DNA of 64,000 bases from Candidatus Omnitrophota bacterium (lineage in GTDB: Bacteria; Omnitrophota; Gorgyraeia; Zapsychrales; Zapsychraceae): positions 405,874 through 469,873 of the forward strand of contig JAGQKV010000002.1 in the NCBI GenBank assembly GCA_020429915.1, read 5' to 3'. The number at the start of each line of letters is the position of its first letter. The first letter of the stretch is position 1. A model generated the notes under the pieces. It ran no database searches and had not been told where the DNA came from. It saw only the letters and a program-made list of their open reading frames with translations. Both the position numbers and the translations under genes were made by a program. Of this stretch, positions 2,671-63,910 are shown one piece after another.

Positions 2671-3542
2671 CCCACGGAAAACAAGGCACTGTAAATCAAC
2701 AGAATCTTCCCGGTAAACGCCAGCGTGGCATTCAGCCGCTCCCCATCGGTGCTGCCGAAAACCGTCCTTATGCCGGGCAATGCCAACACGCTGATGACAC
2801 TGCAGACCAGGATCGCCACATGATCGTGGATGAGCATGTAAATCAGGACCGGGAGCAGCGCGGCCAGCATCAGACTCACCGCATACTCATACTGACCGAA
2901 TATCGGGCCGAACCGCACCGCCAGCGTTTTTTTACCGCTGCGCCGGTCGCCATCGATATCGCGGTAGTTGTTGACGGCGAGGATGGCCACGGAAATCAAC
3001 CCAGGCCCCAAACCGGCCAGAATTACGGCATAATTCAGTTCGTATGTCTGCACCAGGTATGTTCCGCCCACCGCGACGGGACCGAAAAAAACCAGCACAA
3101 AAAGTTCTCCCAGCCCGAGATATCCCAGCGGCTTAGGTCCTGCCGTATAAAAAATACCGGAAAGGATGCAAACGACCCCGAGCAGACCGATGGGCCAGCC
3201 GCCGCGTTGGACCAATATAAGAAAACCCAGCATGGTCACCGCGAAGACTCCGGCAAAGGCGTTGCGCACCGTTTCAGGTTTGATCAGTCCGGCCTGCGTG
3301 ACTCGCACCGGCCCCACGCGCTCGGCAGTGTCCGTGCCCTTTTTGAAATCATAGTAGTCGTTCGCCAGGTTGGTGCCGATTTGGATCGTCACGGCGGTCA
3401 ACAAACACACCAGCGCCGTCGGCCAGTGCCAGAGTCCGTCGCCGAAGGCCATGGCCGTACCGATGACTACCGGCGCGATCGCCGCCGGCAAAGTCTTGGG
3501 ACGGCACGCCAGCATCCAGTTTTTGATGGCCATTGAGGTCAT
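2658..3542 (-). CDS. menA: 1,4-dihydroxy-2-naphthoate polyprenyltransferase (UbiA family)
   Basis: 294 aa polytopic membrane protein, UbiA-type NDxxD-like motifs (NDYYD, NNYRDIDGD). Confidence 0.85.
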   Translation of the reverse strand: MTSMAIKNWMLACRPKTLPAAIAPVVIGTAMAFGDGLWHWPTALVCLLTAVTIQIGTNLANDYYDFKKGTDTAERVGPVRVTQAGLIKPETVRNAFAGVFAVTMLGFLILVQRGGWPIGLLGVVCILSGIFYTAGPKPLGYLGLGELFVLVFFGPVAVGGTYLVQTYELNYAVILAGLGPGLISVAILAVNNYRDIDGDRRSGKKTLAVRFGPIFGQYEYAVSLMLAALLPVLIYMLIHDHVAILVCSVISVLALPGIRTVFGSTDGERLNATLAFTGKILLIYSALFSVGWIL

Positions 3543-3547
3543 AATCG

Positions 3548-4381
3548 TTACGGGCGTCGCGGAAACTTTGAAAAGTCCGGCTTACGTTTTTCTACAAAGG
3601 CGTTGCGGCCTTCCTGTCCTTCCTCACTCATGTAAAACAGCATCGTCGCGTTGCCCGCTAATTCCTGTAAACCGGCTTGTCCGTCGCAATCAGCATTCAA
3701 CGCCGCCTTCAAACAACGTATGGCCAACGGCGAATTGCTGAGGATCTCGCGACACCATTGCACGGTCTCCGCTTCGAGCTGATCCAACGGAACAACCGTA
3801 TTGACCAAGCCCATCGCCAGCGCCTGCTGCGCATCGTATTGCCGGCAAAGAAACCAGATTTCACGTGCCTTTTTTTGTCCGACGATACGGGCCATGTAAC
3901 TGGCGCCGTACCCCCCGTCAAAGGAGCCGACCCGCGGGCCGGTCTGGCCGAAACGGGCATTTTCCGCCGCGATCGTCAGGTCGCATAAAAGGTGCAGAAT
4001 ATGTCCGCCGCCGATCGCGTAACCGGCGACCATGGCGACAATCGGCTTGGGACAGGTGCGCATCTGGCGCTGGAAGTCCAGCACATTCAGACGATTCGTC
4101 CCGTCGCTGTCCTTATATCCGGCGTCCCCGCGGATTTTTTGATCACCGCCGGAACAAAATGCCTTGTCGCCCTCACCAGTAAGAATAATGACACCGATGG
4201 ATTCATCGTCTCGCGCCTCGTTAAGGGCATGAGACATTTCGTGAACGGTCTGGGGCCGGAAGGCGTTGCGGACCTGCGGCCGGTTGATGGTAATCTTGGC
4301 GATCCCCTCGGCCTTATCATACTTAATATCTTCGTACTGTCCGGCTGATTGCCACTGTATCGATTCTCTCGTCATGGTCAT
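3548..4381 (-). CDS. menB: 1,4-dihydroxy-2-naphthoyl-CoA synthase (crotonase family)
   Basis: [20 protein letters not shown]-terminal KRKPDF motifs typical of MenB. Confidence 0.9.
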
Positions 4382-4382
4382 G

Positions 4383-6152
4383 TTATCCTCTTTCCTGCTT
4401 TCCCAAAGATTTGCGGATTCGGTTGGCGATGGTTTGATGCAAACGGAAGTTCTCTCGGCGGTCGGTCACCACTTCGATGAGTGTGGCGGACTTCGCTTTG
4501 ACGGCGGCGCGGTACGCCTTCTCAAAAGAAGCCGTCGTTTCAGGCCGCTCATAGTGCACGTGAAATTGGCGGGCGATATCGTCAAAATGCATGCCGTGCG
4601 GTGCGGCAAAATAGCGCTCAAAGTCCTTATTATTTTCGGCAATAGGCAGAAATTCAAAAATGCCGCCGCCGTTGTTATTCAGCACGACAATAACCGCGGG
4701 AGGCACATCCCGGGACCACAGCGCCAACGAATTCATGTCGTAGAGAAACGCCAGATCGCCCACCAGGACCGTCACCGGGCGACTCAAACCCTTGGCAAAA
4801 CCGGCGGCGCTGGCCAGTATGCCGTCGATGCCGCTGGCTCCGCGGTTGGCGCCCACCGGCACCTCATGGCGTCCGTCGGCGAAGGCGTCCATTTCCCTCA
4901 CCGCGAGACTGTTGGATACGAACAGCACGTGCGGTTTGGGCAGACAGTTGCTGACGATCTGCATGACGGCCGGCTCGCTGATCCGGGAGTCCCCCGCGCC
5001 CCATTGCCGAATCGTATTTTGAATGGCGGCTTCCTTCCGTTGAAAACGCTTGAGATGTTGTCCGGCCGGACGTTGGCGGACCGCTTGTGCCAACTTGCGC
5101 GCGAATTCCCCGGGGCAGCCTTGAACCCGGATTTCCACCTGATGCTGCGGATCGTTTCGCAACGGATGGTTGAGCACCATGATCACGTCCCGCGGACAAT
5201 AGCGCGCCAACCATTCATAATATGACTTGGCGGTCATGCGACCGCCGAGGTGCAACACCGCATCCACTCCCTCCCGGAGATACGGCAGCAGGTGCTGATA
5301 ATGCCGGATAACAAGATCGCCGTGCGGCGCCAGACGCAATCCCGAAGTGATATCGGGAAAGACCGGCCACTGCAGTTTCTGCGCCAAGCGCAGAACATGG
5401 CGGGTCGCCGCGGGTCCGGACAATTTTCCGCAAACAATGACTCCGGTTTTAGCCGATAGTATCCGTCCCGTGACGGCCTCAACGGCGGCCGCGGCGGGCA
5501 GCGTCTCGGGTGAAAAACAGGTCGTGTATGGGCGGGCGGTGCGCGCCCAACCGTACAACGCAGGGCCAACCGCGGAACCCAGACGGCCCTGTTGGGACTC
5601 GGCGGCAAACGGCTCACGGAACATCCAGTTAATATGGACCGGACCGGGAATCTCGCCCTGCGAACGATAGACGGCCTGATCCATGGTCGTCAATACAAAG
5701 GCCGGGTCGGTCTCAGCGCAGGCCACCGGCAGATCCGTTTCCCACCGGACGTAGCCGGAAAAGATGCCGGGCTGCGTGATCGTTTGATTGGCCCCGGTTT
5801 GACGCAACTCGGGAGGCCGGTCGGCGCTGAGTACCACCAGTGGCAGCTTTTTCTTGGAAGCCTCGATAACTGCGGGCAACAAATTGGCCACGGCCGTCCC
5901 CGATGTCGTAATCACAGCCACCCCGCCTTTACGGGCGGCGGCATAACCCAGGGCATAAAATCCCAAACCGCGCTCATCAAAGTGTACCAGCTGCCGCGCC
6001 TTGGGATTGGCCGCAACCGCCACGGTCAGCGGCGTGGAGCGCGATCCCGGCGCAACACAAAAATACTCGACACCACAGCGGATCAATTCCTCAACGGCGA
6101 GGTCGGCCCATAATTGTTGAAGGTCCGCACTTTTAATCTTTCGGGAACTCAT
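4383..6152 (-). CDS. menD: SEPHCHC synthase (2-succinyl-5-enolpyruvyl-6-hydroxy-3-cyclohexene-1-carboxylate synthase), ThDP-dependent
   Basis: 589 aa ThDP enzyme-like sequence, operon position between menF and menB. Confidence 0.85.
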
Positions 6153-7522
6153 CCGAATACTTTCATGAACCGACTGATCTTGGTTTCAATCTCTTCCCAC
6201 TCGTCATCGGCCTGAGAACCTTCGACGATCCCGGCCCCGGCATACAGGGACAAGATGTGATCGACGACCAATCCCGAGCGGATCGCCACGGCAAACTCAC
6301 AGGATCGGCGGGCGATCCACCCGACCGGCCCCGCGTACCAGCCGCGGGAAAATTCTTCCAAGGCACTGATTTGCCGGCAGGCCTGCGCCGCCGGATATCC
6401 ACCCACGGCAGGGGTCGGATGCAGCGCCCGCAATATGTCGGCCCGTGTGACATCGGCCGACAAGCGCCCGGTCATTTGGGTACAAAGATGCTGCACATTA
6501 TTCAACGCCATGACACCCGGTTCGGCAGGAATTTCAAACTCCGTGCACAACCGCTGCAGCTCCGTACGCAGATGATCGACCACAAACTGCTGCTCCCGCC
6601 GACACTTATCGGAGGCCAACAACTCCCGCCTGAAGGCCTGGGCCTCCTGTTCGCAGACCCCAGCCGGCATCGTCCCCGCCACCGCTTCGGTCAGAATCCG
6701 GTCTCCGTCGAGGCGAAATAAACGTTCGGGAGGCGCACCGACAAAACCGTGATGCGGACGCGGTTGAAAACAAAAATGATAGCAAGCGGGAGACGTCTGG
6801 CTTAAGAAATTGACGAGCGCGCTCGGCCGGATGGGCACATGAAACGCGAAATTACTTTGCCGGGCCAGCACGATCTTATGGTTGCGCTCCAGCCGCAAAC
6901 CGTCCACCAGTCTCCGCCAGGCTCCCCGGTTCGGAAAATCCACCCGGCTTAACCGGCGCGGCACCTGCCGGTAGCGCGTTTCCCCCGAGAACTCCAAGTC
7001 TTGCAACTCGCCGACCACCTGAGAAACAATGTCCGGCGTAATCTCCGCCACCCGTATATTGACGGCGAACACATACTCCGTATCACGACGGACAACTTCA
7101 AACCGGGGGACGACCCAGCGATACGCGCCAAAATCACACCATACGCCAGCTTCATCGCCTGGATCAAAACTGAAACCGCCGTAAAACCGAACCCGCTGAT
7201 TGTCGTCTCCGAGGCTCGCGTCAACGGCATCAAAGACTTCCTGATAGTCCGCCGATCCCGATCCGGTGAGCATTTTGGCCCGTCCGACACCGGCAGTTTC
7301 CTCAATACCTTCCCGGTCCGACCAATAAATCTTCTCGGCATTGACTTGGTTATGCAACCAACCCAACGGACGCATCGGCTCACAGTGAAACTCAAATCGC
7401 AAAACCGTGTCGGCGTCGCCTATCGCCGAGACCATTTGCGGCAACCGGGAAATCTGACCGGTCACGGCCTCACGGAGCTCCGCGTGACCGTACACACGGT
7501 CACTGCAAAACAAGGTCATCAT
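6149..7522 (-). CDS. menF: isochorismate synthase (chorismate-binding enzyme)
   Basis: 457 aa chorismate-utilising enzyme C-terminal domain (GGYPAAQA...SRGWYAGPVGW... AGAGIV). Confidence 0.85.
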   Translation of the reverse strand: MMTLFCSDRVYGHAELREAVTGQISRLPQMVSAIGDADTVLRFEFHCEPMRPLGWLHNQVNAEKIYWSDREGIEETAGVGRAKMLTGSGSADYQEVFDAVDASLGDDNQRVRFYGGFSFDPGDEAGVWCDFGAYRWVVPRFEVVRRDTEYVFAVNIRVAEITPDIVSQVVGELQDLEFSGETRYRQVPRRLSRVDFPNRGAWRRLVDGLRLERNHKIVLARQSNFAFHVPIRPSALVNFLSQTSPACYHFCFQPRPHHGFVGAPPERLFRLDGDRILTEAVAGTMPAGVCEQEAQAFRRELLASDKCRREQQFVVDHLRTELQRLCTEFEIPAEPGVMALNNVQHLCTQMTGRLSADVTRADILRALHPTPAVGGYPAAQACRQISALEEFSRGWYAGPVGWIARRSCEFAVAIRSGLVVDHILSLYAGAGIVEGSQADDEWEEIETKISRFMKVFG

Positions 7523-8247
7523 TCCCGCTCACCCTGATAGATCGTGGCGACACCGAACAGCTGCGGGTGCGCACTGACACGGGAAAATCCCGCCCGACGC
7601 ATCAGTTCGCAAAACTCCTCCCCATAAGGAAATTGCTCAATCGTTTCGTTGAGGTACTTGTAGGCCGCGTACTCGCCGCTCAATAACCAGCCTAAGGCCG
7701 GAACGACGGTGCGCAAGTACAGCAAATGCCCCGCGCGCAACAACGGATTCTTCGGAAAAGAAAACTCCAATATCAGGCTACGCCCGCCCGGTCGCAATAC
7801 GCGGCGCATTTCTTGCAGGGCCACCAGGGGATCATCCACATTGCGGATTCCGAAAGCGATCGTGGTGCAATTGAAGGTTTCTGCTTCAAATGGAATTTTA
7901 TTGGCATTGGCCGTGCGCAGGGTGAGCCTTTTATCAAGATTCTTTTTGATGATTTTCCTGCGGCCGATGTCCAGCATGCGAGCCGCCATATCCACTCCCA
8001 CGCCTTCGGTCAGCCGCGGTGCGTTCTCCGCCAGCGTGATCAGGACATCCGCGGTCCCGGTGGCCAAATCAAGTAATTTAAGATCCGGCTTGTCGGGCAA
8101 ATACGTACACAGCCGGCGGCGCCAGGAAAGGTCCAGCCCCAACGATAACAACCGGTTGAGCAGATCATAACGGGCCGAGATCCGGTTAAACATTTTCCAG
8201 GAATCGGACTTAGGGACAGGAAATTGACGGTCGACGGGATCGGTCAT
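7519..8247 (-). CDS. menG: demethylmenaquinone methyltransferase (UbiE/MenG SAM-dependent methyltransferase)
   Basis: 242 aa; LDLATGTADV SAM motif I; UbiE-like N-terminus FNRISARYDLLN. Confidence 0.85.
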   Translation of the reverse strand: MTDPVDRQFPVPKSDSWKMFNRISARYDLLNRLLSLGLDLSWRRRLCTYLPDKPDLKLLDLATGTADVLITLAENAPRLTEGVGVDMAARMLDIGRRKIIKKNLDKRLTLRTANANKIPFEAETFNCTTIAFGIRNVDDPLVALQEMRRVLRPGGRSLILEFSFPKNPLLRAGHLLYLRTVVPALGWLLSGEYAAYKYLNETIEQFPYGEEFCELMRRAGFSRVSAHPQLFGVATIYQGERE

Positions 8248-13425: not shown

Positions 13426-15252
13426 ATGTCCAACCCGCACACATTCCATATACCGGTGATGGGAACCGCGTTTTCCATCGATACTCCGGTCAAGGTCGCT
13501 CCCTTCGGGATTTCGTCCGTTATTTCCCTGGTAGACGACACACTGATCGAGCAAATGCGCGAGTATTATGCCAACCGGTACCGTATGCAGTTTGAACCGA
13601 TCACCAAATACGACGCTGATTTCCGGGCCCGCCGGATCGAGGAATACCTGAACCTGGTCCGCCATATTGTCGAAGATCACTTCGAAAAGGTCCGCAACTC
13701 GTGTTTCGAGATGGGCGGCGAGATCACCAAGTACTTTGAAATGCTGGCCAACAACTCTCCGCTTAAAAAGCTCTACAAGGAAATGCTGGCGACCGAAGAC
13801 CATGATCTCAAAGCGGAGCTGCAGACCCGTCTGCGAACTTTGATGAAACCGGGCAGCATCGATGTCAACATCATGACCAAGTTGGACAGGACCAATTTCT
13901 CCAGCAAGCGGGAAGAACTCGGGATGGAATTCTCCGATGCTCTCTCCGCCCTGCGCGGGTATGCCCAAAGCACGTTAAATTCGGCTATCATATTCTCAGC
14001 CGGGATCAACCGGCGACTGTACAGCTATGTCGAAAAATTCGAAGATTTCTATGCCGACACCACGGGCCGGATCAAAAAGAAAATCGTGCTGAAGGTCAGC
14101 GATTACCGTTCGGCGCTCATTCAAGGACGCTTTTTTGCCAAGAAAGGATTGTGGGTTTCTGAATTCCGCATCGAATCCGGTCTGAATTGCGGTGGCCATG
14201 CCTTTGCCTCGGACGGATACCTGCTTGGTCCCATTTTGGAAGAATTCAAGAAAAAGCGGACGGAGTTGATTGAAACGCTCTTTAAGATGTGCAATGAAGC
14301 CCTAAGCCAAAAGCAGCGGCCCACGCTGGCGTACCCGCCGGAATTACGCATTACCGCTCAAGGCGGAATCGGCACGGCTCTGGAAGACAGCTTCCTGTTA
14401 AATTACTACGATCTGGACGGAACCGGCTGGGCATCCCCCTTCCTGCTGTGTCCCGAGGTGACCAATGTCGATCTCGAAACCCTGCATAAACTTTCCCGGG
14501 CCGGCGAAGACGACTTGTATCTCAGCGAAGTCTCACCGTTGGGAGTACCGTTCAATAATCTGCGCGACACGCAAAGCGATACGGAACGAGACCGCCGGAT
14601 TACGGCTGGACGTCCGGGGAGCGCATGCCCCAAGGGCCATCTCGTCTCCAATACGGAATTCACGGAGACCCCGATATGTACGGCCTCACGGCAATATCAA
14701 AAATTGAAACTGGAGCAACTCGTTCAGGCCGACCTGAATCCGGCCGAAAAGGAAGCCGAAATTAAGAAGGTCACGGTCAAATCATGCATCTGCCATGACC
14801 TAGGTTCGGCAGCCCTTCTCAACAACGATTTGGTGCGTAAGGGGCAAACCGCCTTCTCCGCCATTTGCCCGGGCCCCAACATGGCCTATTTTTCCCGGAT
14901 CGCTTCGCTCGAAGAAATGATCGCCCACATCTACGGACGCCTCAATCTGCTGAATACAGACAAACGCCCGAATATGTTTATCAAGGAATTGCGGATGTAC
15001 GTGGATTACTTCTGCAAGGAAGTGCAAAAGTCCCTTCCGCAGGTCACGAAAAAGCAACAGGCTTATCTGCAGGAATTCGAGGCGAACATGCTGGATGGAA
15101 TCAACTATTACCGGGGGCTTATTCCCAAGATGGTTGAGGAAACCAAAGAGTATCGCGACCGCGCGCTTGAAGAATTGGAAGAACACCGCTCTCGATTACT
15201 GTCATTTATAGCGAGCCATCCTTCTATTTTTCCGCAGAAGGTCACAACGTAA
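13426..15252 (+). CDS. hypothetical protein, 608 aa; weak NMO/FabK/PfaD-like FMN TIM-barrel motifs
   Basis: Long ORF with strong promoter+RBS; motifs HIPVMGTAFS, GLNCGGHAF, GGIGTALE loosely resemble the NMO/FabK family; not recognised otherwise. Confidence 0.5.
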   Translation: MSNPHTFHIPVMGTAFSIDTPVKVAPFGISSVISLVDDTLIEQMREYYANRYRMQFEPITKYDADFRARRIEEYLNLVRHIVEDHFEKVRNSCFEMGGEITKYFEMLANNSPLKKLYKEMLATEDHDLKAELQTRLRTLMKPGSIDVNIMTKLDRTNFSSKREELGMEFSDALSALRGYAQSTLNSAIIFSAGINRRLYSYVEKFEDFYADTTGRIKKKIVLKVSDYRSALIQGRFFAKKGLWVSEFRIESGLNCGGHAFASDGYLLGPILEEFKKKRTELIETLFKMCNEALSQKQRPTLAYPPELRITAQGGIGTALEDSFLLNYYDLDGTGWASPFLLCPEVTNVDLETLHKLSRAGEDDLYLSEVSPLGVPFNNLRDTQSDTERDRRITAGRPGSACPKGHLVSNTEFTETPICTASRQYQKLKLEQLVQADLNPAEKEAEIKKVTVKSCICHDLGSAALLNNDLVRKGQTAFSAICPGPNMAYFSRIASLEEMIAHIYGRLNLLNTDKRPNMFIKELRMYVDYFCKEVQKSLPQVTKKQQAYLQEFEANMLDGINYYRGLIPKMVEETKEYRDRALEELEEHRSRLLSFIASHPSIFPQKVTT

Positions 15253-40702: not shown

Positions 40703-41419
40703 TTACTTTCCATCCGGTCGTTGAAATGTAAAATCTACCTCCTTGGTCTCCCCTTCGCCCAAGGTGACGGTCACCTGCTGCGGAGCCAAGCGCTGGTGCC
40801 AGGCCTCCAGCACGTATTGGCCCGGCGGCAGATTGTCGATCGTGTAGGTACCGGTTTCGTCGGTCGTCGTGTAAAACGGATGACTCATAACCGTGATATA
40901 CGCACTCATCCACGGGTGGACGTCACATTTGACCTCAAACATGAACTCCGGCTTATCAAAGGTTTTGGTAATTTCTGTGCGGAACTTGGGCATGGCGACG
41001 TTAAACTCGGCATTTTTCTTCGGCAAGGCATGCACATTGTGCAACGTTCCGTCCGGATTCAGGATTTTCAACGGCTGCCCGGCCATGACGCCCATTACGG
41101 CGGGCGTGTAAATACATCCGTGCTGGTTTAACACCTTGGGCTCCTTGGGCACGGGGAAATTGGATTTGGGAAGCCCGTCCTTGACTTGCAAAAAGACATT
41201 CTTAAGCTCATTGTTGGGCCCCAGAATGATCGTTTTGGGAAATACCGTGTCGGTATGCTTGGTAAGACATACGGGATCCGCCCCCATTTTGATGGGCCGG
41301 AGTTTCGGTCGTCGTCCTTGATAGGTCACTTTACCTTTGATCGCGGCCGCCTGCGCCGGCATGGGAAAAGCAAGAATGGCAGCGAGAAACGAGGCTAGTG
41401 TTACGTAGTATATATTCAT
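40703..41419 (-). CDS. secreted beta-sandwich protein with carboxypeptidase-regulatory-like domain signatures and a putative type-1 copper motif (C-x2-H-x2-M)
   Basis: Signal peptide; IKGKVTYQG and TDETGTYTIDNLPPGQYVLEAWH β-sandwich signatures; HNVH...CDVHPWM resembles amicyanin CTPHPFM. Confidence 0.35.
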   Translation of the reverse strand: MNIYYVTLASFLAAILAFPMPAQAAAIKGKVTYQGRRPKLRPIKMGADPVCLTKHTDTVFPKTIILGPNNELKNVFLQVKDGLPKSNFPVPKEPKVLNQHGCIYTPAVMGVMAGQPLKILNPDGTLHNVHALPKKNAEFNVAMPKFRTEITKTFDKPEFMFEVKCDVHPWMSAYITVMSHPFYTTTDETGTYTIDNLPPGQYVLEAWHQRLAPQQVTVTLGEGETKEVDFTFQRPDGK

Positions 41420-45013: not shown

Positions 45014-45430
45014 TTACCGGTATTTGTCGTATTTGAGGCCGATATGATGCAGGAACGGCTTGAAACGATGGTGCTGGTCTTCAAAGCCGTGGAACTCACA
45101 ACCGCAACGGTAGCAGTTGAGAATATGCGGTACCTTGCGGTACAACGCCAAATCTATCAGAAAAACCGCAGGCAGGCTCAACCCGTAGGTCCACGGGACA
45201 AAGATTATACCCACAGCCATGATCAGACAGCCGAGAAATTGGTTAAAATTTTTAGACAGGTAGAATTGCCGGCAGGGACAACGCGGACAACGGTCGAACA
45301 CGTCATCGGGGTTGGAGACGGCACCCAGTTGATGCCCGCAATTCGGACACATCAAATCCGTCTGCCCTGTCCAGGGGACCTGAACATACTGCTTGCATTC
45401 GGGACAGTGACAGGCAACAATCCGGTTCAC
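45014..45430 (-). CDS. Cys-rich zinc-ribbon membrane protein
   Basis: CHCPEC...CPNC, CPRCPC, CYRCGC pairs plus central TM helix; last gene of bc operon. Confidence 0.45.
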   Translation of the reverse strand: MNRIVACHCPECKQYVQVPWTGQTDLMCPNCGHQLGAVSNPDDVFDRCPRCPCRQFYLSKNFNQFLGCLIMAVGIIFVPWTYGLSLPAVFLIDLALYRKVPHILNCYRCGCEFHGFEDQHHRFKPFLHHIGLKYDKYR

Positions 45431-46200
45431 AAAGTTATCCCGAATTTGATGAGGAAATATTTGTAGGCGATATCACCCACTAAAACGCCGCACAGGATAA
45501 CGTATAAAATGCCTGTTGCGGCCTGGGTGTTCTTGAGCTTGATAATTTCATGGACCATAAACATCGCCCCGAACGGTAACAGCACCCCGAAGAAAATCGG
45601 TACCATCAGCAAAAAACCGTCCAGGCGCCCCATGAACTCGTAAAGCCTGATATTCTGGCCTTGATAAAGTATCTGCCCGGTAACAGCATGCACGAGGTTC
45701 CATAGTAACCGAGCGGTAATCAAAATCCAGAAGGCATTGGCGGCATGGCGCAGATGCTTGATGGGCAGGCCATGAACGTTTAAATACCAGTGTCCCAAAT
45801 TCATCGCATACAATGATGCCGAGAAGATCAGCCCGCTTAACGTCATCGTCAACATGCCTGGCAGCCCCCCCGCTACCAGACCGCTTTGAACCTGATAGGT
45901 AAGACCCAACCCACACACGCATAAAAATGTCGTAGCTCCGATCGGAGCAGACTCACGGCGCCAGGCATACGCCGTCAATACCAGTGCGGCGATCATCCAC
46001 AGCACCGCCCCAATATTCACCCAGCTAGGCGTCTCGGCGCGAACAACAAAAAAAAGGGCCAATATACCGACGATAACAGGCAGCCCCAGATGGAAATGAT
46101 GAAAATTATTCTTTAGTGGATCATGACGACTGATCCAAAAGCACAACGGATAGGTGAAAGCAAAATAAAGAGTGGTGAGTAGAGTGATGGTATACAGCAT
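45427..46200 (-). CDS. hypothetical polytopic membrane protein (~7 TM)
   Basis: 257 aa hydrophobic; 4-nt overlap downstream gene. Confidence 0.45.
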   Translation of the reverse strand: MLYTITLLTTLYFAFTYPLCFWISRHDPLKNNFHHFHLGLPVIVGILALFFVVRAETPSWVNIGAVLWMIAALVLTAYAWRRESAPIGATTFLCVCGLGLTYQVQSGLVAGGLPGMLTMTLSGLIFSASLYAMNLGHWYLNVHGLPIKHLRHAANAFWILITARLLWNLVHAVTGQILYQGQNIRLYEFMGRLDGFLLMVPIFFGVLLPFGAMFMVHEIIKLKNTQAATGILYVILCGVLVGDIAYKYFLIKFGITL

Positions 46201-46237: not shown

Positions 46238-49174
46238 TTACGGTGTTTCGGGCACAGGCGCGGCGACGTCCCGCTGTTGTTCTTCGGAAAGAGTTAACAG
46301 GAAATTACGCAGGACGCGGATCTGTTCGTTTTCGTTGCCGTCCAACAGATCATCGGGTCCGGACGTGTCGTAGTTCTCCGGATCGAAGAAGGTCGGCATC
46401 TTGGTCCCGGGCATCAGCTTCGAAGGATTCTTGATCCACTCGATAAGCCACTCCGGCTGCAGGCGCGTCTTGGCCAAGGCCAAGTTGGGTGCCCAGGAGT
46501 CCTGTGAGCCGGTCGGCAGTTTGCTGCCCACCACGTGACACTGAGTACAACCGAAATAGTCCTCGGAGAACAATTTGGCGGCGGCTTCATATTCTTTATC
46601 GGTCAAGCCGGTCTCGACATTTATCTTGAGCGGAAAATTGTCGCCGTCTACGGCCTGGAAATATTTCACTAACGTATTCAGGTGCACGACATTGAAATTG
46701 AAAGTCGGCATGCGCACACGTAACCACGGGCGGACCTTTTGCTTGGGTTCATGCAGAAAATTGAACAGCCATTCCGGATTGAGCTTGCGGCCCACTCCGT
46801 GGAGATTGGGCGGCGAAAAGCTGTCGCGCACTTTGGCGGCTTCGTTATCCGTTTTTTCCTCGAAATCCACCAACCATTTTTCCACGCTGTCATGTATGCT
46901 GCCGCCCTGTCCTTCGACCATATGGCAACCACGACAGTTAAACTGGGCCACCAGCTCCTCTCCCTGCTCCTTAGCCAAATTTTCCGGTGTCCGCGGCTTG
47001 ATCTTGGCTTGCACCTGACTCTCGTCGACGAATCCCAACAAGGCGGTCACAATGGCTTCAATTTCATCATTCTTAAGATTGAAGTTGGGCATCCGCAACT
47101 TTTCATCCGGAGCCTTAATCTTACCTTTGTCAAAACTGCGCGGATCCTTCAACTTTTGAGCATACCAAGCATGTTTGCTATGTTCGATATGCAAGAATCC
47201 GAAATCAAATTTGTGCAGGGACTTACTGGACTCCTCACTGAGCGCCACGCCGATCGGTTTGGCATTGTCAAAGCCTTTAATATTGTGACAGCTGAAACAG
47301 CCGTATTGCGCGATCAGCTTTTCCCCGGCAAACTCCAGTTTCTGCTCAAGCTTCATACCGGCCAGCGTGTTGCGCGCGCCCTGGTCGGTGTCGGCCCGTT
47401 TGAGAAAACCGAGTACAATATCGTTGAGCACATTGACGTTAACGGCCGGGACCGGATGCTGACTGAACGCGTTGTTCTTGTCCTGAATGAGAAAACTGGC
47501 AATGTCCGCAGCCTCCTGATCGGTCAACCGTAAATTAGGCATCGCGGTATCGGGATGATAGCTGTTAGGATCCTTCAACCAATTGTACAACCAGCGGGCG
47601 GACGTCTTCGTACCGATATCGATTAAATTCGGGCCAAAGCGCCGGCGCAAGCCGTCGACGGTGACCATCTCGTCGCCCTTCTCCGGTTGGATCTGGTGAC
47701 AGGCATAGCAGCCGACTGAGGCGACAAGCTCCTCGCCGCGTGCCGGATCGCCCTTGATCGGCAACCGGTCGCTAGGATAGGGTTGAGCGTTCTCAAACAG
47801 GTAATGCAAGATGGCGTGAATTTCCTGATCACTGCGTTTCTTGGACACCACATCGCTGTTGTTGGACTGATTAAAATACGACGGCATCATTGTATTGTGC
47901 CGGAAAGAGTGCGGATCATTCAACCAGCGCCAGCCCCACTCCTTATCGATTTTACCGGCCAATTTGGTCAGGTTCGGCCCCGGCTTCGGCCAGTCTTTGT
48001 AACGTTCGATCTCGTGACAAGCATAACAGCCCGCCGTCTCGATCATGGCCAGCCCCGTACTCAACTTTTCCGCGCCCTTGACCGGAAACTCTCCGGAGTG
48101 ACATTTGTAACAACCGGCCTCTGTGTAAGGTAGCGGCAGCATCGGCTCCTCCCACAGTTCCATCTGATGATAGCCGTATTTTTCCTCCCACTCCTTCTTT
48201 TGTTGCGGCGATGACGGCACGTGCACCGCGCCGTTAAAGCTCGTCCCGCGCGGACGGCCGGCGTGACAAACGGTACACCCGAATTCCTCCAGCGGGTGAG
48301 GTGAATTCTTCCCCACGTAAAGTTCTAGATTCGGGTGCGTCGTAAACGGTTGGGCTTCGTTTACGTAGTCAGGATTGGTAATACCCAGGTGGCAGGTGGT
48401 GCAGCGGTCGACCCGCGGCACATTCATAAAATTGACGTCCTCGGTGACATCCTTGAGTACGATTTGTTCGACTTTGTTGCGTGGATTGGCCAACTCCAGG
48501 ATCGGCAAGTCGCGGACCATATTGGCGACCTGGTTGGTCAGATTCATGGCATTCGGATCGATGCTGTCCAATTGACGGACGAGGATGCTCTGACGGGCGG
48601 TCATCTGCCGCTCATCGCGCTCCAGTTGAGCGAGTTGGGCGCCGCAGTTGTCCATCATCCGCTGTTTGCTTTTCAGGGCGGTCTTGGCCTCCTCGACGTC
48701 GAGCGCCAATTTGGTTACCTGTTGATCCAAGGATTGAAACGCTTCCCTGTATTGATCAACATCGTGTTCATGATAAGCCTCGCCGTGTTCAAACCGGTAT
48801 TTGGCCGCATCAAATTCCGCCTTGCGGAATTTGTAATCTTGTTCCACCAGCGTCAACTTGGCGTTCGCCTCTTCGATCTGCTCCTGCAGCTCCGTTTGCG
48901 CCAGGCACTTGTCTTTATAAGCCTGCTTGGCCGCTGCTATTTTGCCCTCAAGTTCTTCATACTCTGCCTGCTGGGACAGCTCGATATTCTCCTTGTCGAG
49001 TTTGACGCGGGCTTTTTCTATTTCAATCGTGCGGAATTGACGCTGGTAATCCTTCCAGTCGCGGTCATAATCGTTCATAAACACGCTCATCAGTGTCAGC
49101 AACAGCACAACGCTAACCACGGCGAAGACGACGTTTAGTTTGTTAATATTATAATGGCGTTCGTCTTTTCCCAA
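46238..49174 (-). CDS. octaheme c-type cytochrome with N-terminal TM anchor and ~230-aa coiled coil
   Basis: Eight CxxCH (CTTCH, CTVCH, CYKCH, CYACH x2, CFSCH, CRGCH, CTQCH); repeated Met-Pro ligand motifs (TMMPSYF, TAMPNL, RMPNFN, RMPTFNF, TKMPTFF). Confidence 0.85.
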   Translation of the reverse strand: MGKDERHYNINKLNVVFAVVSVVLLLTLMSVFMNDYDRDWKDYQRQFRTIEIEKARVKLDKENIELSQQAEYEELEGKIAAAKQAYKDKCLAQTELQEQIEEANAKLTLVEQDYKFRKAEFDAAKYRFEHGEAYHEHDVDQYREAFQSLDQQVTKLALDVEEAKTALKSKQRMMDNCGAQLAQLERDERQMTARQSILVRQLDSIDPNAMNLTNQVANMVRDLPILELANPRNKVEQIVLKDVTEDVNFMNVPRVDRCTTCHLGITNPDYVNEAQPFTTHPNLELYVGKNSPHPLEEFGCTVCHAGRPRGTSFNGAVHVPSSPQQKKEWEEKYGYHQMELWEEPMLPLPYTEAGCYKCHSGEFPVKGAEKLSTGLAMIETAGCYACHEIERYKDWPKPGPNLTKLAGKIDKEWGWRWLNDPHSFRHNTMMPSYFNQSNNSDVVSKKRSDQEIHAILHYLFENAQPYPSDRLPIKGDPARGEELVASVGCYACHQIQPEKGDEMVTVDGLRRRFGPNLIDIGTKTSARWLYNWLKDPNSYHPDTAMPNLRLTDQEAADIASFLIQDKNNAFSQHPVPAVNVNVLNDIVLGFLKRADTDQGARNTLAGMKLEQKLEFAGEKLIAQYGCFSCHNIKGFDNAKPIGVALSEESSKSLHKFDFGFLHIEHSKHAWYAQKLKDPRSFDKGKIKAPDEKLRMPNFNLKNDEIEAIVTALLGFVDESQVQAKIKPRTPENLAKEQGEELVAQFNCRGCHMVEGQGGSIHDSVEKWLVDFEEKTDNEAAKVRDSFSPPNLHGVGRKLNPEWLFNFLHEPKQKVRPWLRVRMPTFNFNVVHLNTLVKYFQAVDGDNFPLKINVETGLTDKEYEAAAKLFSEDYFGCTQCHVVGSKLPTGSQDSWAPNLALAKTRLQPEWLIEWIKNPSKLMPGTKMPTFFDPENYDTSGPDDLLDGNENEQIRVLRNFLLTLSEEQQRDVAAPVPETP

Positions 49175-49188
49175 TGTTTCACCGATTC

Positions 49189-50307
49189 CTAGATATTGAA
49201 GAAAAATTCCGGTATGGCTATGATGTACTTAACGTTGAAAGCCCAGCGCAGCAGCATTTTTATGGGCAGGCTGAGCGTCAGCAGCAGCAAAATGACAAAA
49301 ACGCTGTAGCGTAACGGTCCCAGGTTTTTGAAGACATTTTTGAGGAAGGTCTTGGCAAACAGCAGAGGCATCAGTCCGAAATAAATACCGAGGACCAAGA
49401 ATCCCCACATCTCCCGCAACAGAATATTGGTGGGCAGCTCCCGTTTCATCCAAATCATATACACGTACTCCGACAGATTGATATTCGTCAAGGCCGCCAG
49501 TTTATGCGAGTCCCAGTATTCAAACGGACCGAAGAAATTCCAGTTGGGTCCGCGCAGGAAAGTCCCTACAGATATAAGGAAGATCCATAGGACCAGCCAC
49601 AAAAACATGAACATGGAGACGGCCATTTGCCGGTCCTTGAAAGTGTAGTAGCCGGAACCTTTGGTGTTATTGTCGATAAACGGAATAGACATCAAGCCCA
49701 ACAGGATGACCGTTGGAAACACCACCCCGGCAAGCCAGGGGTCGAAGTAAACCAACATCTCCTGTAATCCGAGAAAATACCACGGAGCCTTGGAGGGATT
49801 AGGCGACACGGACGGATTGGCCGGCTCCTCGATCGGAGCATGTAGGGACATCGCCCATACCAACAGTAGCACCGAGCACAGAATGAGCGCGATCAGTTCG
49901 ATGTAGACCAGATCCGGCCACACCAGAATCTTTTCCTTGGCATCTTCCGCTTCATTTGGCCTCTTCCCGGCTGCGATCCGGGCGTCGTTCTCGTAGGCCT
50001 GTTTCATGGCAAACCACAGGAAGAAGACCACTAAAAACAGCAGACCCACGATCGGCACATTATCCGGTTTCGTGACAATTTTGCGGAAGTTGGCATCGGT
50101 CATCCCGAAACAGAAAAACGAGAACAACGTCCCGATCATCAAGGCTCCGCCGGCGTTGGTCCACAGTTTGTAGATCCCCAAACGCTCGTTAATCCGAAGA
50201 AAAAACTTGTTGATCGGAAAGACGAAGACGTAAACGACCGCCAACAAAGGAAAGAGAATTTGCGGATTGGTAAACTTGTTGATGAAAGCTTTTATCGCTT
50301 CGATCAT
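49189..50307 (-). CDS. cytochrome b C-terminal half / subunit IV-like protein (extended)
   Basis: APWYFLG (PEWY-like Qo motif), 8-9 TM, no CxxCH. Confidence 0.7.
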   Translation of the reverse strand: MIEAIKAFINKFTNPQILFPLLAVVYVFVFPINKFFLRINERLGIYKLWTNAGGALMIGTLFSFFCFGMTDANFRKIVTKPDNVPIVGLLFLVVFFLWFAMKQAYENDARIAAGKRPNEAEDAKEKILVWPDLVYIELIALILCSVLLLVWAMSLHAPIEEPANPSVSPNPSKAPWYFLGLQEMLVYFDPWLAGVVFPTVILLGLMSIPFIDNNTKGSGYYTFKDRQMAVSMFMFLWLVLWIFLISVGTFLRGPNWNFFGPFEYWDSHKLAALTNINLSEYVYMIWMKRELPTNILLREMWGFLVLGIYFGLMPLLFAKTFLKNVFKNLGPLRYSVFVILLLLTLSLPIKMLLRWAFNVKYIIAIPEFFFNI

Positions 50308-50349: not shown

Positions 50350-51144
50350 TTAAGTCGGTCCGGATATCCCCCCGTCCTTGCGGACCCTCCAAAAGTGCAC
50401 GATCATGAAAATCATCATGACAAACGGCAGGCCGATGCAGTGCAGGACATAAAAGCGCAATAAGGCGGCCTCGCCGACGAATCGTCCGCCGAGCATGGCA
50501 AACTTGGCGTCACTTGTTGATGTCACGAAATTGACATCCCCGATGGCCAACAGTGATGACCCCGGCCCGCCGGTCCCCACGAACGGCGTCGCCCCGGCCA
50601 TATTGGACCCGACGGTGATCGCCCAGATGGCCAGCTGGTCCCACGGCAGCAAGTATCCCGTGAAACTCATCAGCATGGTCAGGACCAGCAGAATAACCCC
50701 CACCGCCCAATTGAATTCACGCGGCGGCTTGTAGGATCCGGTCATGAAGACCCGAAACATGTGCAGCCACACGGTGATAACCATCAAGTGAGCGCCCCAG
50801 CGGTGGATCTCCCTCATGATCCCCAACGGGACTTGCTCGCGAAGATCGATGATGTCACCGTAGGCGTACTCCACCGTAGGTCTGTAGTAAAACATCAGCA
50901 GAATTCCGGTGATCGTCAGGACCAGAAAAACAAAAAAAGACAGCCCGCCCATGCACCAGGTGTACTTGACTTTGACCGCATGCTTGGGGAGCCTTACCGG
51001 ATGAAGGTGCAAAAAGACGCCGTTAAGGACGACCATCATCCGTTGGCGGGGGGTCGTCGGGATACCGGTCCGGAAAATAGCCCGCCAGACCTGCGTGTTA
51101 ACGACGAAACTCTGAAACTTTTTCCATGCGTTATTTTCGGACAT
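50350..51144 (-). CDS. cytochrome b (b6-type N-terminal half)
   Basis: 264 aa; 4 TM with conserved His pairs ([12 protein letters not shown]...H). Confidence 0.85.
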
Positions 51145-51162: not shown

Positions 51163-51852
51163 TTAGACGAGGATGAACGACTCGGGATCGGTCCATTCCC
51201 CTTTTTCCTGTTGAAATTTTTTGGTTTTGTCGACAATAATTTCCCCGTCCGGAGCCTGGGTGATCTTGAACCGCTCCAAGGGTCGCGGCGCGGGCCCCTC
51301 GAAATTGATGCCATTCTTGTAGAAGCCGCTACCGTGACAGGGACACTTGTACTTGCCTTCGCTCTCCAACCAGTTGGGAGTACAACCCAGATGGGTGCAT
51401 ACCGTGGATAGGGCGTATATTTTCTCGGCGTCTCTTACAATCCACACGGCCTGGGTTTCTTTGAAATTCTCGTTCACTTCGCCGACGGTATAATCGTCCG
51501 GATAGCCGGCACGGAAGGATTGTTTCGGTTCGAAGAGGACGTTCGGAAAGAGGTAGCGCAGCAAAAGCGTCCCGTAACCGCCGATCACCGCGGCAAAGGC
51601 GGTCCATCCCAAGGCAGCCCACTTGATAAAAGTGCGCCGGTCGACGTTTTCCCCCTCCGGTGCACGGACGATGGGCGTGGCGACTGCAGACTTTTTCTGC
51701 AGCTCCTGCGGTGTCACTCCGATCTGCTTGTTTTGCGAATTGGACGCCTGATCAGCGCCGCCCGCGGCATCTTGCGTTGGGGCTGTCGGGCGCGGAGGGA
51801 TCTTGGACGTTTTTTGAGATTTATTCTTCTGCGGTTTATTCTTGTCTGACAT
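51163..51852 (-). CDS. Rieske [2Fe-2S] protein with long N-terminal extension
   Basis: CTHLGC...CPCHGS Rieske boxes; Tat-like RRTFIKWAAL ~70 aa from first ATG; possible GTG start at 51717. Confidence 0.85.
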   Translation of the reverse strand: MSDKNKPQKNKSQKTSKIPPRPTAPTQDAAGGADQASNSQNKQIGVTPQELQKKSAVATPIVRAPEGENVDRRTFIKWAALGWTAFAAVIGGYGTLLLRYLFPNVLFEPKQSFRAGYPDDYTVGEVNENFKETQAVWIVRDAEKIYALSTVCTHLGCTPNWLESEGKYKCPCHGSGFYKNGINFEGPAPRPLERFKITQAPDGEIIVDKTKKFQQEKGEWTDPESFILV

Positions 51853-51856
51853 GTGA

Positions 51857-52720
51857 CTATTTCTTTACTGCCTTCAGGGCGGCAGCCCTGACCATCATAT
51901 TATTGTCTTTCTCTGATATAAACTTTATGCGGGACTTGATCTCCCGGTCGTCGTACACGGCCCCGGCGTTTATGGCGGCCATAATTAAGTCGTTTTGTTC
52001 GGTTGGGTCGACTTCGGAGAACTGACTGAGATAGTCCCGGTCCAGCACATTCAACAATACGGATTTGCCGGATAGGTCACCCATATTGGCAAGGGATATT
52101 GCTGAACCCCATTTTACATTGGGTTCGGGATCTTGCAATCCTTTTTTTAAAAACTCAACGGACTGTGGATCTCCCAACCGGCCCAAGGCGACCACCGTGA
52201 TTGAGCGGACGCGCGCATTGCCGTGACCGACAAACTCATGCAGGCGTTCTGCGTTCCCCGGATCGCCGATCATGCCGATGGCGTAAATCAGTGCCGGCAG
52301 GTTCTCTTCCTTTTCTTCCGCCAGACTGGCGGTGAGTACCGGCCCGAAGACCTTACGTTGCGTTCTGCCCATCGCCAGCGCCAGGTATTGGCGCACCCTG
52401 TTGTCATCATGTTGGGCCGCCTTAAAGGCCGAGATGAGTTCGTTGTCAAAACGCTCCTCCTGCGGGACCAGCTTGGGATTGGCGAGCATTTTGGAAAGCT
52501 CAAAGGCCCCCTGCCAGCGTTTACTGCGGCCGCCGACCTTGACGTCATTGAGGTAATCGTAGACGCTGCGTTTTTCCTGGGTCAGCAACCGCATTCCGGC
52601 AAATAACAGGACACCGAACACCGCGATGAGAAACGGTATGATGAAAAACGAATGAACGATCACCCGCAGAAACGATTTTTCCTCTTCCGCGGGCACTTCT
52701 GTGTGCTGTTCATTATCCAT
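51857..52720 (-). CDS. membrane-anchored HEAT-repeat protein
   Basis: N-terminal TM helix then HEAT/PBS-lyase-like repeats (VRQYLALAMG..., VRSITVVALGRLGDP, VKWGSAISLANMGD, VRAAALKAV); 5 nt from Rieske gene. Confidence 0.6.
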   Translation of the reverse strand: MDNEQHTEVPAEEEKSFLRVIVHSFFIIPFLIAVFGVLLFAGMRLLTQEKRSVYDYLNDVKVGGRSKRWQGAFELSKMLANPKLVPQEERFDNELISAFKAAQHDDNRVRQYLALAMGRTQRKVFGPVLTASLAEEKEENLPALIYAIGMIGDPGNAERLHEFVGHGNARVRSITVVALGRLGDPQSVEFLKKGLQDPEPNVKWGSAISLANMGDLSGKSVLLNVLDRDYLSQFSEVDPTEQNDLIMAAINAGAVYDDREIKSRIKFISEKDNNMMVRAAALKAVKK

Positions 52721-52771
52721 ATACTAATGCACCTGATTATAACAATTAAAATTATTCCGAAAAGGCTTTTC

Positions 52772-54495
<1,724 letters not shown>

Positions 54496-61725: not shown

Positions 61726-62772
61726 TTACATATCACTGGTCTGAAACAAACCGGTCTTTTCGATCTTCGTATAGAACTCGTCGATCTTGGCGGCGATGAT
61801 CTCGTTGACAGCCGTGACGGCGGCCTGCCGTTTCAACAAGCTCTCTTCCACCACAGATTCCAAATCATCGATGTGATACAGCGACACGTTGTCAAGCAGG
61901 GCGATCTTGGGATCGATATTGCGGGGCATCGAAATGTCGACAAACATCAGAGGACGCTGGCCGCGGGCCGCCATGCATTTCTCAACCACACCGGCCTCGA
62001 TCACATAATGCGGTGCCGATGATGAGCAGACACACAGGTCAACCAACGCCAAAGTTTCCTTCATATCACAAAATGAAACCACCTCGGCCTCAAAGCGGGC
62101 CGCCAAGTCCCGGGCATGCTGTTCGGTGCGGTTCATCACGTACAACTTCCGGAATCCCTTGTTGGAAATCTGACCGACGGCCAGCTTGCTCATCTTTCCG
62201 GCCCCGACCATCAACACGGACTTGTCGCTGAGGCTACCTAAATCGCGTTCCGCCGTCATGATGGCTGCCCAACTGACGGAAGAACCGCCGATGCCGATAT
62301 CGGTCTCCGCCTGCGCCTTTTTCCCAGCCCGGATGGCGACATTGGCCAGGATATTGAAATTCTTCAGAAAAAATCCCTTCTGCTGCCCTTTGTCGAAGGC
62401 GGACTTCATCTGGCCGAGAATCTGCCGTTCGCCGATCACCAGCGAATCAAGACCGGCACAGACCTGCATCAGATGCGCCACAGCGACACGATCGTGATAG
62501 GTATAAAAGTATCCCATCAGACCGCTGTTGTACGCAATTCCGCGGATCTGGCAGATGATCATGACCACCCGTTGGATTTCATAGTCCGCGTCGATCACAT
62601 TCACATAGACCTCGGTGCGGTTGCAGGTCGACGCCACGAAGGCCTCGGTCACGGCCGCATCGGACTTTAATTCACTGAGCAGCAGGTCCTCTTGTATGGG
62701 AGTCAGATAAAATTTCTCGCGAATGGATATCGGGGCCGTCTTGTGGTTGATGCCCACGGCAATAATGTTCAT
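61726..62772 (-). CDS. hemA: glutamyl-tRNA reductase (short form, 348 aa)
   Basis: MNIIAVGINHKTAPISIREKF...STCNRTEVY active-site Cys region; NADP Rossmann GAGKMS. Confidence 0.85.
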   Translation of the reverse strand: MNIIAVGINHKTAPISIREKFYLTPIQEDLLLSELKSDAAVTEAFVASTCNRTEVYVNVIDADYEIQRVVMIICQIRGIAYNSGLMGYFYTYHDRVAVAHLMQVCAGLDSLVIGERQILGQMKSAFDKGQQKGFFLKNFNILANVAIRAGKKAQAETDIGIGGSSVSWAAIMTAERDLGSLSDKSVLMVGAGKMSKLAVGQISNKGFRKLYVMNRTEQHARDLAARFEAEVVSFCDMKETLALVDLCVCSSSAPHYVIEAGVVEKCMAARGQRPLMFVDISMPRNIDPKIALLDNVSLYHIDDLESVVEESLLKRQAAVTAVNEIIAAKIDEFYTKIEKTGLFQTSDM

Positions 62773-62866
62773 GCGTTATCTTTCACTATTATTATTAAGA
62801 GGTAAGTCGGAGTATAACAAAAAGCCCGTCTCAATTCAAACGATTTTCCGGCGAATCCGCAGTATT

Positions 62867-63910
62867 TCAGGGAGTTTCGACCGCAGCAGGCACAGCGTTG
62901 TTGAGGACCAAATCCGTCAGACAATCGACCCACAGGGGATGGTCGTTCAGACTATTGGCCAAGTCGAGCCACTCCCCACCCTGCGCCACAAATTGCTCAT
63001 AGTAGGTTTCGCCGATCTCCACCGTGGTCTCCAGACAGTCCGCCACGAACGAAGGCGAAAAGGCCAGAATGCGTTTGACCCCTTGAGCGGCCAGCTCGTC
63101 GATGACTTTATCGGTATAGGGTTTGATCCACGGATCGCGGCCCAAGCGGGATTGAAAACTGACCGTGTAGCGGCCCTCCTCAATCCCCAGCCGCTGCACC
63201 AGCAACCGTGTGGTTTCGTAGCACTGCGCCCGGTAACAATACCGGTTGCGATCGTGCAGGACCGAGCAGCATTTGGCGCTCAGCTGACAGTACCCCGTGG
63301 AACTCTTGCGGATTTGCCGTTCGGGCAGGCCGTGATAGGTAAACAGGTAATGATCGTAATCTTTTTTGGCGATATAATTTCGACCGATTTCGGCGAACGC
63401 CTCCAGAAAAAGCGGATGATCAAAAAACTGACTGACGACCTCCAGGCGCGGAAAGGTCTCCATCCGGCGCAATTCATCTAGGACCTTCTCAATCGACGAA
63501 CCAGTGGAGGCCGAGGCGTACTGCGGATACAGCGGAACGACAACCAGCTTTTTCAAGCTGCGCAGAGCAAATTTGTCCAGCGCCTCGCGGATCGAAGGAT
63601 TCTGATAACGCATCCCCAGCTCCACCTGGTATTCCTCACCAAGTGCGGCCTGCAGCATTTCGCGTATTTTCACACCATAGATCAACAACGGCGAGCCGCT
63701 CTCGGTCCACAATTTTTGATATTCGGCCGCCGATTTGGGAGCCCGAAAAGGCGCGATGATCCCCTGGACCAGTAAAAACCGTTGCCAGGCCGGGATATCG
63801 ATGACGCGTCCGTCCATCAGGAATTCGCGTAAATAGCGGCGGACATCCGGCACCTGCGGGCTGTCGGGTGTCCCCAGATTAACCAACAATACTCCAGTGT
63901 GAGGACTCAT
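62867..63910 (-). CDS. hemH: ferrochelatase
   Basis: 347 aa; LLVNLGTPDSP N-terminus and conserved His/Glu core. Confidence 0.9.
   Translation of the reverse strand: MSPHTGVLLVNLGTPDSPQVPDVRRYLREFLMDGRVIDIPAWQRFLLVQGIIAPFRAPKSAAEYQKLWTESGSPLLIYGVKIREMLQAALGEEYQVELGMRYQNPSIREALDKFALRSLKKLVVVPLYPQYASASTGSSIEKVLDELRRMETFPRLEVVSQFFDHPLFLEAFAEIGRNYIAKKDYDHYLFTYHGLPERQIRKSSTGYCQLSAKCCSVLHDRNRYCYRAQCYETTRLLVQRLGIEEGRYTVSFQSRLGRDPWIKPYTDKVIDELAAQGVKRILAFSPSFVADCLETTVEIGETYYEQFVAQGGEWLDLANSLNDHPLWVDCLTDLVLNNAVPAAVETP

Follow-up and report, generated by a model that had tools for sequence, protein, structure and literature searches.

Few respiratory enzymes have been studied as thoroughly as the cytochrome bc complexes, whose accessory subunits vary by lineage. 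The supernumerary subunits of bc1 and b6f complexes, exemplified by subunit IV of Rhodobacter sphaeroides, cyanobacterial PetP and PetG/L/M/N, stand outside the three-subunit catalytic core; they are small and restricted to particular lineages, and in several of them a single transmembrane (TM) helix provides the anchor at the core periphery. A membrane-anchored alpha-solenoid is known in CcmI (System I), a periplasm-facing TPR protein that chaperones apocytochrome c. Split cytochrome b complexes with a CxGG motif and multihaem acceptors, some of them with extra non-core subunits, have been described as Geobacter ExtOPQS and anammox R/b, and neither the Geobacter ext cluster nor the anammox complexes include a HEAT protein as described (PMC5600118, PMC5877670). 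We analyzed here a stretch of 64,000 nt from a Candidatus Omnitrophota genome (contig JAGQKV010000002.1, positions 405,874 to 469,873; hereafter, the window), in which the gene of a membrane-anchored HEAT-repeat protein and four genes of a complex with such features form one cassette. The HEAT protein would be the dedicated partner of one kind of quinol:cytochrome c oxidoreductase, which we call type A and take to comprise a Rieske protein, a b6-type cytochrome b with CxGG, a 357-374-aa subunit-IV-like protein with APWY and a membrane-anchored octahaem cytochrome c. Against the NCBIfam ExtP model the window cytochrome b scores 266 bits (cut-off 290), and the subunit-IV-like protein and the cytochrome c match ExtQ and ExtS weakly; since these scores fall below the equivalog cut-offs, type A is a different subtype from Geobacter Ext.

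All five genes of the cassette are read from the minus strand. The HEAT-repeat protein gene occupies 51857..52720 (287 aa; an ORF with an ATG start and its stop codon at 51857-51859) and is followed by that of a Rieske [2Fe-2S] protein at 51163..51852 (229 aa; Pfam Rieske, 1.4e-10; NCBIfam PetC-like), the low-complexity N-terminal tail of which carries an RRTF twin-arginine motif. Next come a four-helix cytochrome b6-type subunit at 50350..51144 (264 aa; Pfam Cytochrome_B, 1e-42), with cytochrome b6 (1vf5_A, 1e-42) as best PDB match and a W63-C64-M-G-G motif (50944-50958) that aligns to the haem-cn Cys35 motif of b6; a subunit-IV-like membrane protein at 49189..50307 (372 aa; Pfam Cytochrom_B_C), which has additional helices and carries APWYF as its Qo-site motif; and, last, an octahaem cytochrome c at 46238..49174 (978 aa), assigned from Pfam, NCBIfam and a count of 8 CxxCH motifs. 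Both motifs are widely kept in the GTDB species set described below, CxGG in 67/69 and APWYF in 65/66 loci. The cytochrome c is built from an N-terminal TM helix, a coiled coil of ~200 aa (SMC-like matches) and then the haem domains. Two further minus-strand genes follow at 45014..46200, one for a 257-aa polytopic protein (45427-46200) that has no Pfam or NCBIfam match and is found in 36/61 genome loci, mostly of Omnitrophota, and the other for a 138-aa Cys-rich, zinc-ribbon-like membrane protein (45014-45430); these lineage-specific followers are outside the universal cassette.

The window is a respiratory island, with menaquinone genes, a haem-copper oxidase accompanied by CtaA/CtaB/SCO, ATP synthase, hemA and hemH. 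The menaquinone genes may point to menaquinol as substrate of the bc complex, which would fit the non-canonical APWY Qo motif. The menaquinone-biosynthesis-like genes, as read from N-terminal sequences, form a run at 140-8247 (minus strand). Upstream of the atp operon, positions 61726-63910 (minus strand) encode a hemA-like glutamyl-tRNA reductase and a long membrane-anchored ferrochelatase; haem-synthesis genes also lie directly upstream of the HEAT gene in the loci L030, L031, L033, L046 and L049, all of which are devoid of atp genes at that place. Just before COX1, a gene at 40703-41419 (minus strand) encodes a 238-aa secreted protein with a CarboxypepD_reg-like domain and a conserved HNVH...KCDxHPWM arrangement (His/Cys/His/Met, resembling a type-1 copper site). 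In another locus (L086), the gene placed immediately between those of the octahaem cytochrome and COX1 (13771-14487) has a product 34% identical to this 238-aa protein. We regard the latter as a candidate cupredoxin-like carrier between the bc complex and the oxidase, its sole PDB support being a weak blue-copper match (E=0.48).

At its downstream junction, 4 nt separate the end of the HEAT stop codon (51857) from the Rieske ATG (51852); across the GTDB species loci HEAT-to-Rieske gaps have a median of ~6 nt, with many -4 overlaps. On the upstream side the atpC stop ends at 52772, and 51 nt separate it from the HEAT start. A preliminary description of this DNA had placed the HEAT gene ~50 nt after atpC, which stands, and 5 nt before the Rieske gene, which is corrected here to 4 nt. 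The AT-rich atpC-HEAT gap (52721..52771, minus strand), as read from the sequence, runs ...TTGTTATAATCAGGTGCATTAGTAT-ATG on the minus strand and contains, by eye, an extended -10-like TGTTATAAT and an SD-like AGGTG. A consensus scan for promoters and terminators called nothing in this gap, with counts near shuffle expectation. A short AT-rich hairpin (GAAAAGCCTTTTC) is also present there. It is plausible from the sequence of the junctions that the HEAT gene is the first of the bc transcript, and co-transcription with atp would likewise be possible in the Omnitrophota organism.

The HEAT protein is laid out as a short acidic N-tail, one TM helix and ~7 HEAT-type helix pairs. It matches Pfam HEAT_2 (PF13646; 7e-17, 61.9 bits against a gathering threshold of 27.7), HEAT_PBS (PF03130; 2e-8, 34.2 bits, threshold 20.9) and HEAT (31.6 bits, threshold 23.5), and falls into no specific Pfam or NCBIfam family. 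In an AlphaFold model computed with 21 orthologues as input (mean pLDDT 89, pTM 0.77), a disordered acidic N-tail leads into a long helix at residues 17-47 and then into an all-alpha solenoid of ~7 pairs. That helix includes the hydrophobic stretch taken as the TM segment, residues 20-43 (VIVHSFFIIPFLIAVFGVLLFAGM; 52592..52663, minus strand), which the family alignments also support, and the solenoid is assigned to residues 53-287 (51860..52564, minus strand) from the model, Foldseek and alignments. An N-terminal TM helix followed by four or more HEAT repeats had been noticed before, a count that proves conservative in the light of the ~7 modeled pairs. Among PDB entries, the best Foldseek matches of the model were designed alphaRep/HEAT and armadillo proteins and CpcE, the last being the best natural structural match with a TM-score of 0.57; taken together, sequence and fold searches of the PDB returned designed alphaRep/armadillo proteins, CpcE, DOHH, YibA and AP-2 beta, and gave no functional lead. 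As modeled, the fold is that of a generic binding solenoid. Chain d2 of PDB 10lk, a 291-aa 'HEAT repeat domain-containing protein' from a large assembly, also matched weakly (E=0.0019); a bc complex is improbable here, as the entry is absent from the matches obtained with cytochrome b.

A sequence search retrieved 785 homologues at E<=1e-3, and the 120 matches listed are near-full-length orthologues that cover 94-100% of the query at 54-100% identity; because of these homologues and orthologues the ORF is not a chance one. The closest named homologues are annotated as 'HEAT repeat domain-containing protein' in Candidatus Omnitrophota MAGs. Across 33 family representatives the only invariant residues are P29, W69, A72, G180, L195, W204, A207 and A281, and no conserved His, Cys or acidic pair was found among these sequences; the HEAT domain bears the signature G-x4-(K/R)RWQ(A/S)A(F/Y)EL at residues 63-76. 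This pattern of conservation fits a binding scaffold, not an enzyme. His23 is invariant among Omnitrophota and was considered as a cofactor ligand, and this was rejected because the residue is lost in distant members. Similarly, deoxyhypusine hydroxylase, a di-iron HEAT enzyme, gave a weak PDB match (4d4z, 5e-8), yet the family has no invariant His/Glu, and this candidate was also discarded. The TM segment, on its part, is among the best-conserved portions of the protein. Indeed, Omnitrophota members share 12 invariant TM positions, and Pro29 is constant family-wide, which suggests that the helix makes a specific contact within the membrane and is more than a passive anchor.

We examined gene neighborhoods from the HEAT side by scanning GTDB genomes, one for each species, with an alignment of 21 sequences, which yielded 144 relatives; the best 80 of these 144 loci were used, neighbors being called by tblastn with the window proteins and gene starts by a simple ORF caller. 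In all loci that extend 400 nt or more downstream (75/75), the HEAT gene was directly followed by a Rieske gene of the same orientation, and the HEAT-Rieske junction never exceeded 134 nt or accommodated another gene in any locus of the set. Rieske, cytochrome b, subunit IV and a ~1000-aa cytochrome c were all found downstream in each of the 61 loci (61/61) that extend over at least 6.3 kb. On the opposite side, atpD-atpC preceded the HEAT gene in just 34/68 loci, five of which have 0.8-1.7 kb between atpC and HEAT. Given that the ATP synthase neighborhood is so unevenly retained, the HEAT gene belongs with bc and not with atp. By depositor labels, the HEAT-bc linkage spans about eight or more phylum-level groups: record titles in the GTDB set name Omnitrophota, Neomarinimicrobiota, Fidelibacterota, Hydrogenedentota, Calditrichaceae, 'Spirochaetia' and 'Planctomycetales', and further HEAT members are labeled Acidobacteriota, Latescibacterota and Lentisphaerota. 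All named carriers found are uncultured MAGs. COG counts reported in 2011 for Ca. Solibacter usitatus list HEAT repeat (6), Rieske (5) and cytochrome b (4) as co-expanded, and these are not connected there (PMC3174227); this bacterium is a possible cultured host of the HEAT gene.

The linkage also extends to distant members of the family. A whole-library profile search gave ~40 full-length single-stretch relatives among its top 150 matches, the rest of which are filled by giant multi-HEAT proteins. We inspected five members that share 30-35% identity with the window protein and bear labels such as Lentisphaerota and Acidobacteriota, and bc linkage was kept in all five. Four of them have HEAT, Rieske, cytochrome b and subunit IV in this order, followed by cytochrome c where the contig allows, and in the fifth (L090, 1427-7888) the order is Rieske-cytochrome b-subunit IV-cytochrome c-HEAT, with HEAT last. 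A linkage that survives this rearrangement is hard to explain by inertia. Synteny was equally kept in a sixth look-up, an acidobacterial-type contig of 1.09 Mb, where unrelated housekeeping genes flank the five genes on both sides and thus fix the boundaries of the cassette. The preliminary description had proposed a functional link of the HEAT protein to the bc complex, to be checked by gene-neighborhood conservation across genomes. With non-synteny to Rieske/cytochrome b seen in none of the 75 loci, the complete downstream set in 61/61 and the distant members in agreement, this link is supported, and physical membership in the complex is what we still infer.

For the reverse approach, HEAT-blind sampling was performed by scanning metagenomes for the cytochrome b motif YTWCMGG, which gave at least 80 loci, and these were then searched with the HEAT family HMM. 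In 37 loci, Rieske lies upstream of cytochrome b with at least 900 nt beyond, and 26 of the 37 carry a HEAT gene, calls that depend on the HMM threshold; when only cytochrome b sequences at least 70% identical to that of the window are considered, the HEAT gene is present in 18/18 loci. The loci without HEAT represent a sister 'type B', planctomycete-like, with a cytochrome b 63-69% identical to the window's, a subunit IV of 405-493 aa that has 1-2 extra N-terminal helices, and cytochromes of 1100-1880 aa, CxGG being kept. Since type B works without a HEAT protein, the latter is not essential to the core chemistry of bc complexes. In addition, no recognizable HEAT gene was detected by the HMM search directly upstream in two type-A-like loci (L148 and L152), so the association between HEAT and type A is tight but perhaps not absolute.

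Several further features of these loci were recorded. Type B without HEAT comprises L091, L098, L110, L117, L122, L130, L135, L150, L153, L162 and L169, and type B Rieske proteins are 370-450 aa long, often with a cytoplasmic N-terminus of long Ala/Pro-rich repeats built around a 'DILAAARAQ'-like motif. The coiled-coil layout of the cytochrome c, an unusual tether for a bc acceptor, is common to both operon types. A tie of the HEAT protein to this N-terminal coiled coil was considered and rejected, as type B cytochromes have it too. In L113 (8661-11708), cytochrome b and subunit IV are followed by a weakly matching HEAT-like gene, and there is no Rieske gene upstream. Two loci with a Lentisphaerota label, L086 (8543-9340) and L087, have WLMGI in place of WCMGG in cytochrome b, that is, they lack the haem-cn Cys and the second Gly, and keep the HEAT gene; upstream of the latter, at a distance of 31 nt, is a gene for a 2x[4Fe-4S] ferredoxin.

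As for membrane topology, the K/R count is 0.94 for the five residues that precede the TM helix versus 0.42 after it, a bias displayed by 18 sequences versus 3 with the opposite one. Net charge over the 15-residue flanks is -1.25 on the N-terminal versus -0.92 on the C-terminal side in 184 close sequences, and the flanks of the window protein itself lean the opposite way from the K/R bias, with the C-flank being the more basic. The soluble domain is strikingly poor in Cys, with 35 in 55,161 residues (0.06%) and none at all in 199/232 domains, compared with 0.72% in generic HEAT proteins and 1.4% in the window ORFs. A twin-arginine-like RRSFLL precedes the TM helix in one weak, contig-truncated HEAT-like ORF, that of L113 (HMM score 35). 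The K/R bias, the scarcity of Cys and the RRSFLL motif, all three of them weak indications, lean towards a periplasmic solenoid in an N-in/C-out orientation, and net flank charges point to neither orientation.

Collectively, these data argue that the HEAT protein is very probably an accessory part of the bc complex, be it a subunit or an assembly helper. Our preferred reading, to which we assign a probability of about 0.5, is that it is a supernumerary subunit of the type A complex. Its conserved Pro-containing TM helix would pack against the membrane core, and the rigid seven-repeat solenoid would provide a protein-binding surface on one membrane face. If periplasmic, the solenoid could sit beside the Rieske head and the octahaem cytochrome, holding or docking either of them or their acceptor, for which the cupredoxin-like protein and the haem-copper oxidase of the same island are possible candidates. 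The analysis establishes the gene, its fold class and the strict gene linkage with its phyletic limits; that the protein associates physically with the complex, in what stoichiometry, on which side of the membrane and with which partner is what we infer from comparisons of genomes. Median identity across the genome loci is 51% for HEAT, 49% for cytochrome c and 84% for cytochrome b, and the divergence rate of the HEAT protein is typical of peripheral components. Against a supernumerary subunit, all the support is genomic, operon-encoded chaperones such as NarJ and TorD show the same kind of linkage, type B does without the protein, the topology evidence is mixed, and the two type-A-like loci L148 and L152 have no recognizable HEAT gene directly upstream. 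A more specific version, in which the HEAT protein is a stoichiometric, periplasm-facing subunit that organizes electron exit by holding the octahaem cytochrome or by docking the cupredoxin-like carrier/haem-copper oxidase into a supercomplex, is speculative and we consider it doubtful.

The main rival, possible if somewhat unlikely, is that the HEAT protein is instead a dedicated assembly factor or chaperone, namely a solenoid tethered to the membrane that would hold for a time a partner still unfolded or lacking its cofactor, for which the long apo-octahaem cytochrome c and the Tat-exported Rieske protein would be candidates. Gene linkage speaks for such a role as much as for a subunit, a solenoid without catalytic residues would suit it, and the HEAT protein evolves as fast as cytochrome c, both well apart from cytochrome b. 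However, type B has larger cytochromes (1100-1880 aa) and a Rieske protein yet no HEAT gene, and so strongly conserved a TM helix points to a stable intramembrane contact; moreover, to our knowledge, chaperone genes are rare in known bc operons.

Haem cn resides on the n-side (cytoplasmic) of the membrane, and the CCB system is the known example of its maturation. A further reading is that the HEAT protein is the missing haem-cn (ci) lyase, a CpcE/F-like protein that would join haem to Cys64 of cytochrome b by a single thioether in lineages without CCB, which we judge highly improbable. The idea is tempting, as the WCMGG of cytochrome b aligns to the Cys35 motif of b6 and is found in 67/69 loci, the E/F-type bilin lyases, which form thioethers between a tetrapyrrole and Cys, are themselves HEAT proteins, and the window protein weakly matches CpcE (5n3u_A, 7e-8) and NblB (1.6e-8). 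Furthermore, haem cn attachment outside cyanobacteria and plastids 'remains a mystery' (Dibrova et al. 2017, PMC5600118). What disfavors this reading is that the HEAT gene and CxGG are decoupled both ways: type B operons have CxGG but no HEAT gene, and L086 and L087 have HEAT although their cytochrome b reads WLMGI. Besides, no family-wide residue looks catalytic or haem-binding, His23 being lost in distant members, and NCBIfam lyase models score 21-34 bits against equivalog cut-offs of 300-600 (NblB, 34.3 versus 300; CpeY, 21.4 versus 600; CpcE, 21.1 versus 330). A periplasmic location, towards which the weak topology evidence leans, would put the solenoid on the wrong side for haem cn, and we know of no such HEAT gene with Firmicute CxGG complexes. 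A tempting candidate is thus removed from the question of haem cn attachment outside cyanobacteria. Least probable of all is the absence of any functional link to bc, the protein being a generic HEAT protein between two operons or an ATP-synthase-associated one: the gene is indeed 51 nt downstream of atpC without a clear terminator between, and atp is directly upstream in half of the loci, but the synteny data have already effectively refuted this reading, with Rieske/cytochrome b linkage in every locus across some eight or more phylum-level labels, those without atp upstream included, its persistence in the shuffled order of L090, and atpC-HEAT distances of 0.8-1.7 kb in five loci when HEAT-Rieske is always <=134 nt.

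The HEAT family marks a distinct five-gene variant of complex III under these phylum-level labels, and its carriers include Marinimicrobia, Acidobacteriota and Omnitrophota, which abound in oceans, soils and groundwater, respectively. A true subunit would offer a handle for recognizing and purifying the type A variant, and, were the electron-exit reading true, electron transfer in Omnitrophota, Marinimicrobia, Acidobacteriota and other phyla would have a repeat-protein scaffold built into its architecture.

Of the known systems with which the protein can be compared, CpcE/CpcF and NblB belong to the same repeat class (Pfam HEAT_PBS), a resemblance at the level of repeat class only: these are soluble, cytoplasmic cyanobacterial proteins without a TM helix, whereas the HEAT protein is membrane-anchored and its carriers, unlike the hosts of CpcE/CpcF/NblB, are devoid of phycobiliproteins. 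CcmI, likewise a membrane-anchored alpha-solenoid, serves as working analogy for an assembly factor but differs in its repeat family, in having two TM helices and in being encoded with ccm genes, not in a bc operon; no sequence relationship between CcmI and the HEAT protein was detected. In the solved bc/b6f entries found in the PDB with the window cytochrome b, no chain matches the HEAT family, and a full-text literature search found no link of a HEAT-repeat or PBS-lyase protein to a Rieske/cytochrome b complex. The preliminary description had held that a HEAT subunit of a bc complex has not been described, and literature, families and solved structures agree with it. None of the supernumerary subunits of bc1 and b6f complexes named above is known to be a HEAT protein or an alpha-solenoid, whereas the window protein, with its putative association to the complex, has a repeat domain of 235 residues. 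Accessory subunits of bc complexes are already known, and a HEAT-solenoid one would be new: if the protein is a true subunit, no bc-type complex before it would have contained a repeat-protein scaffold.
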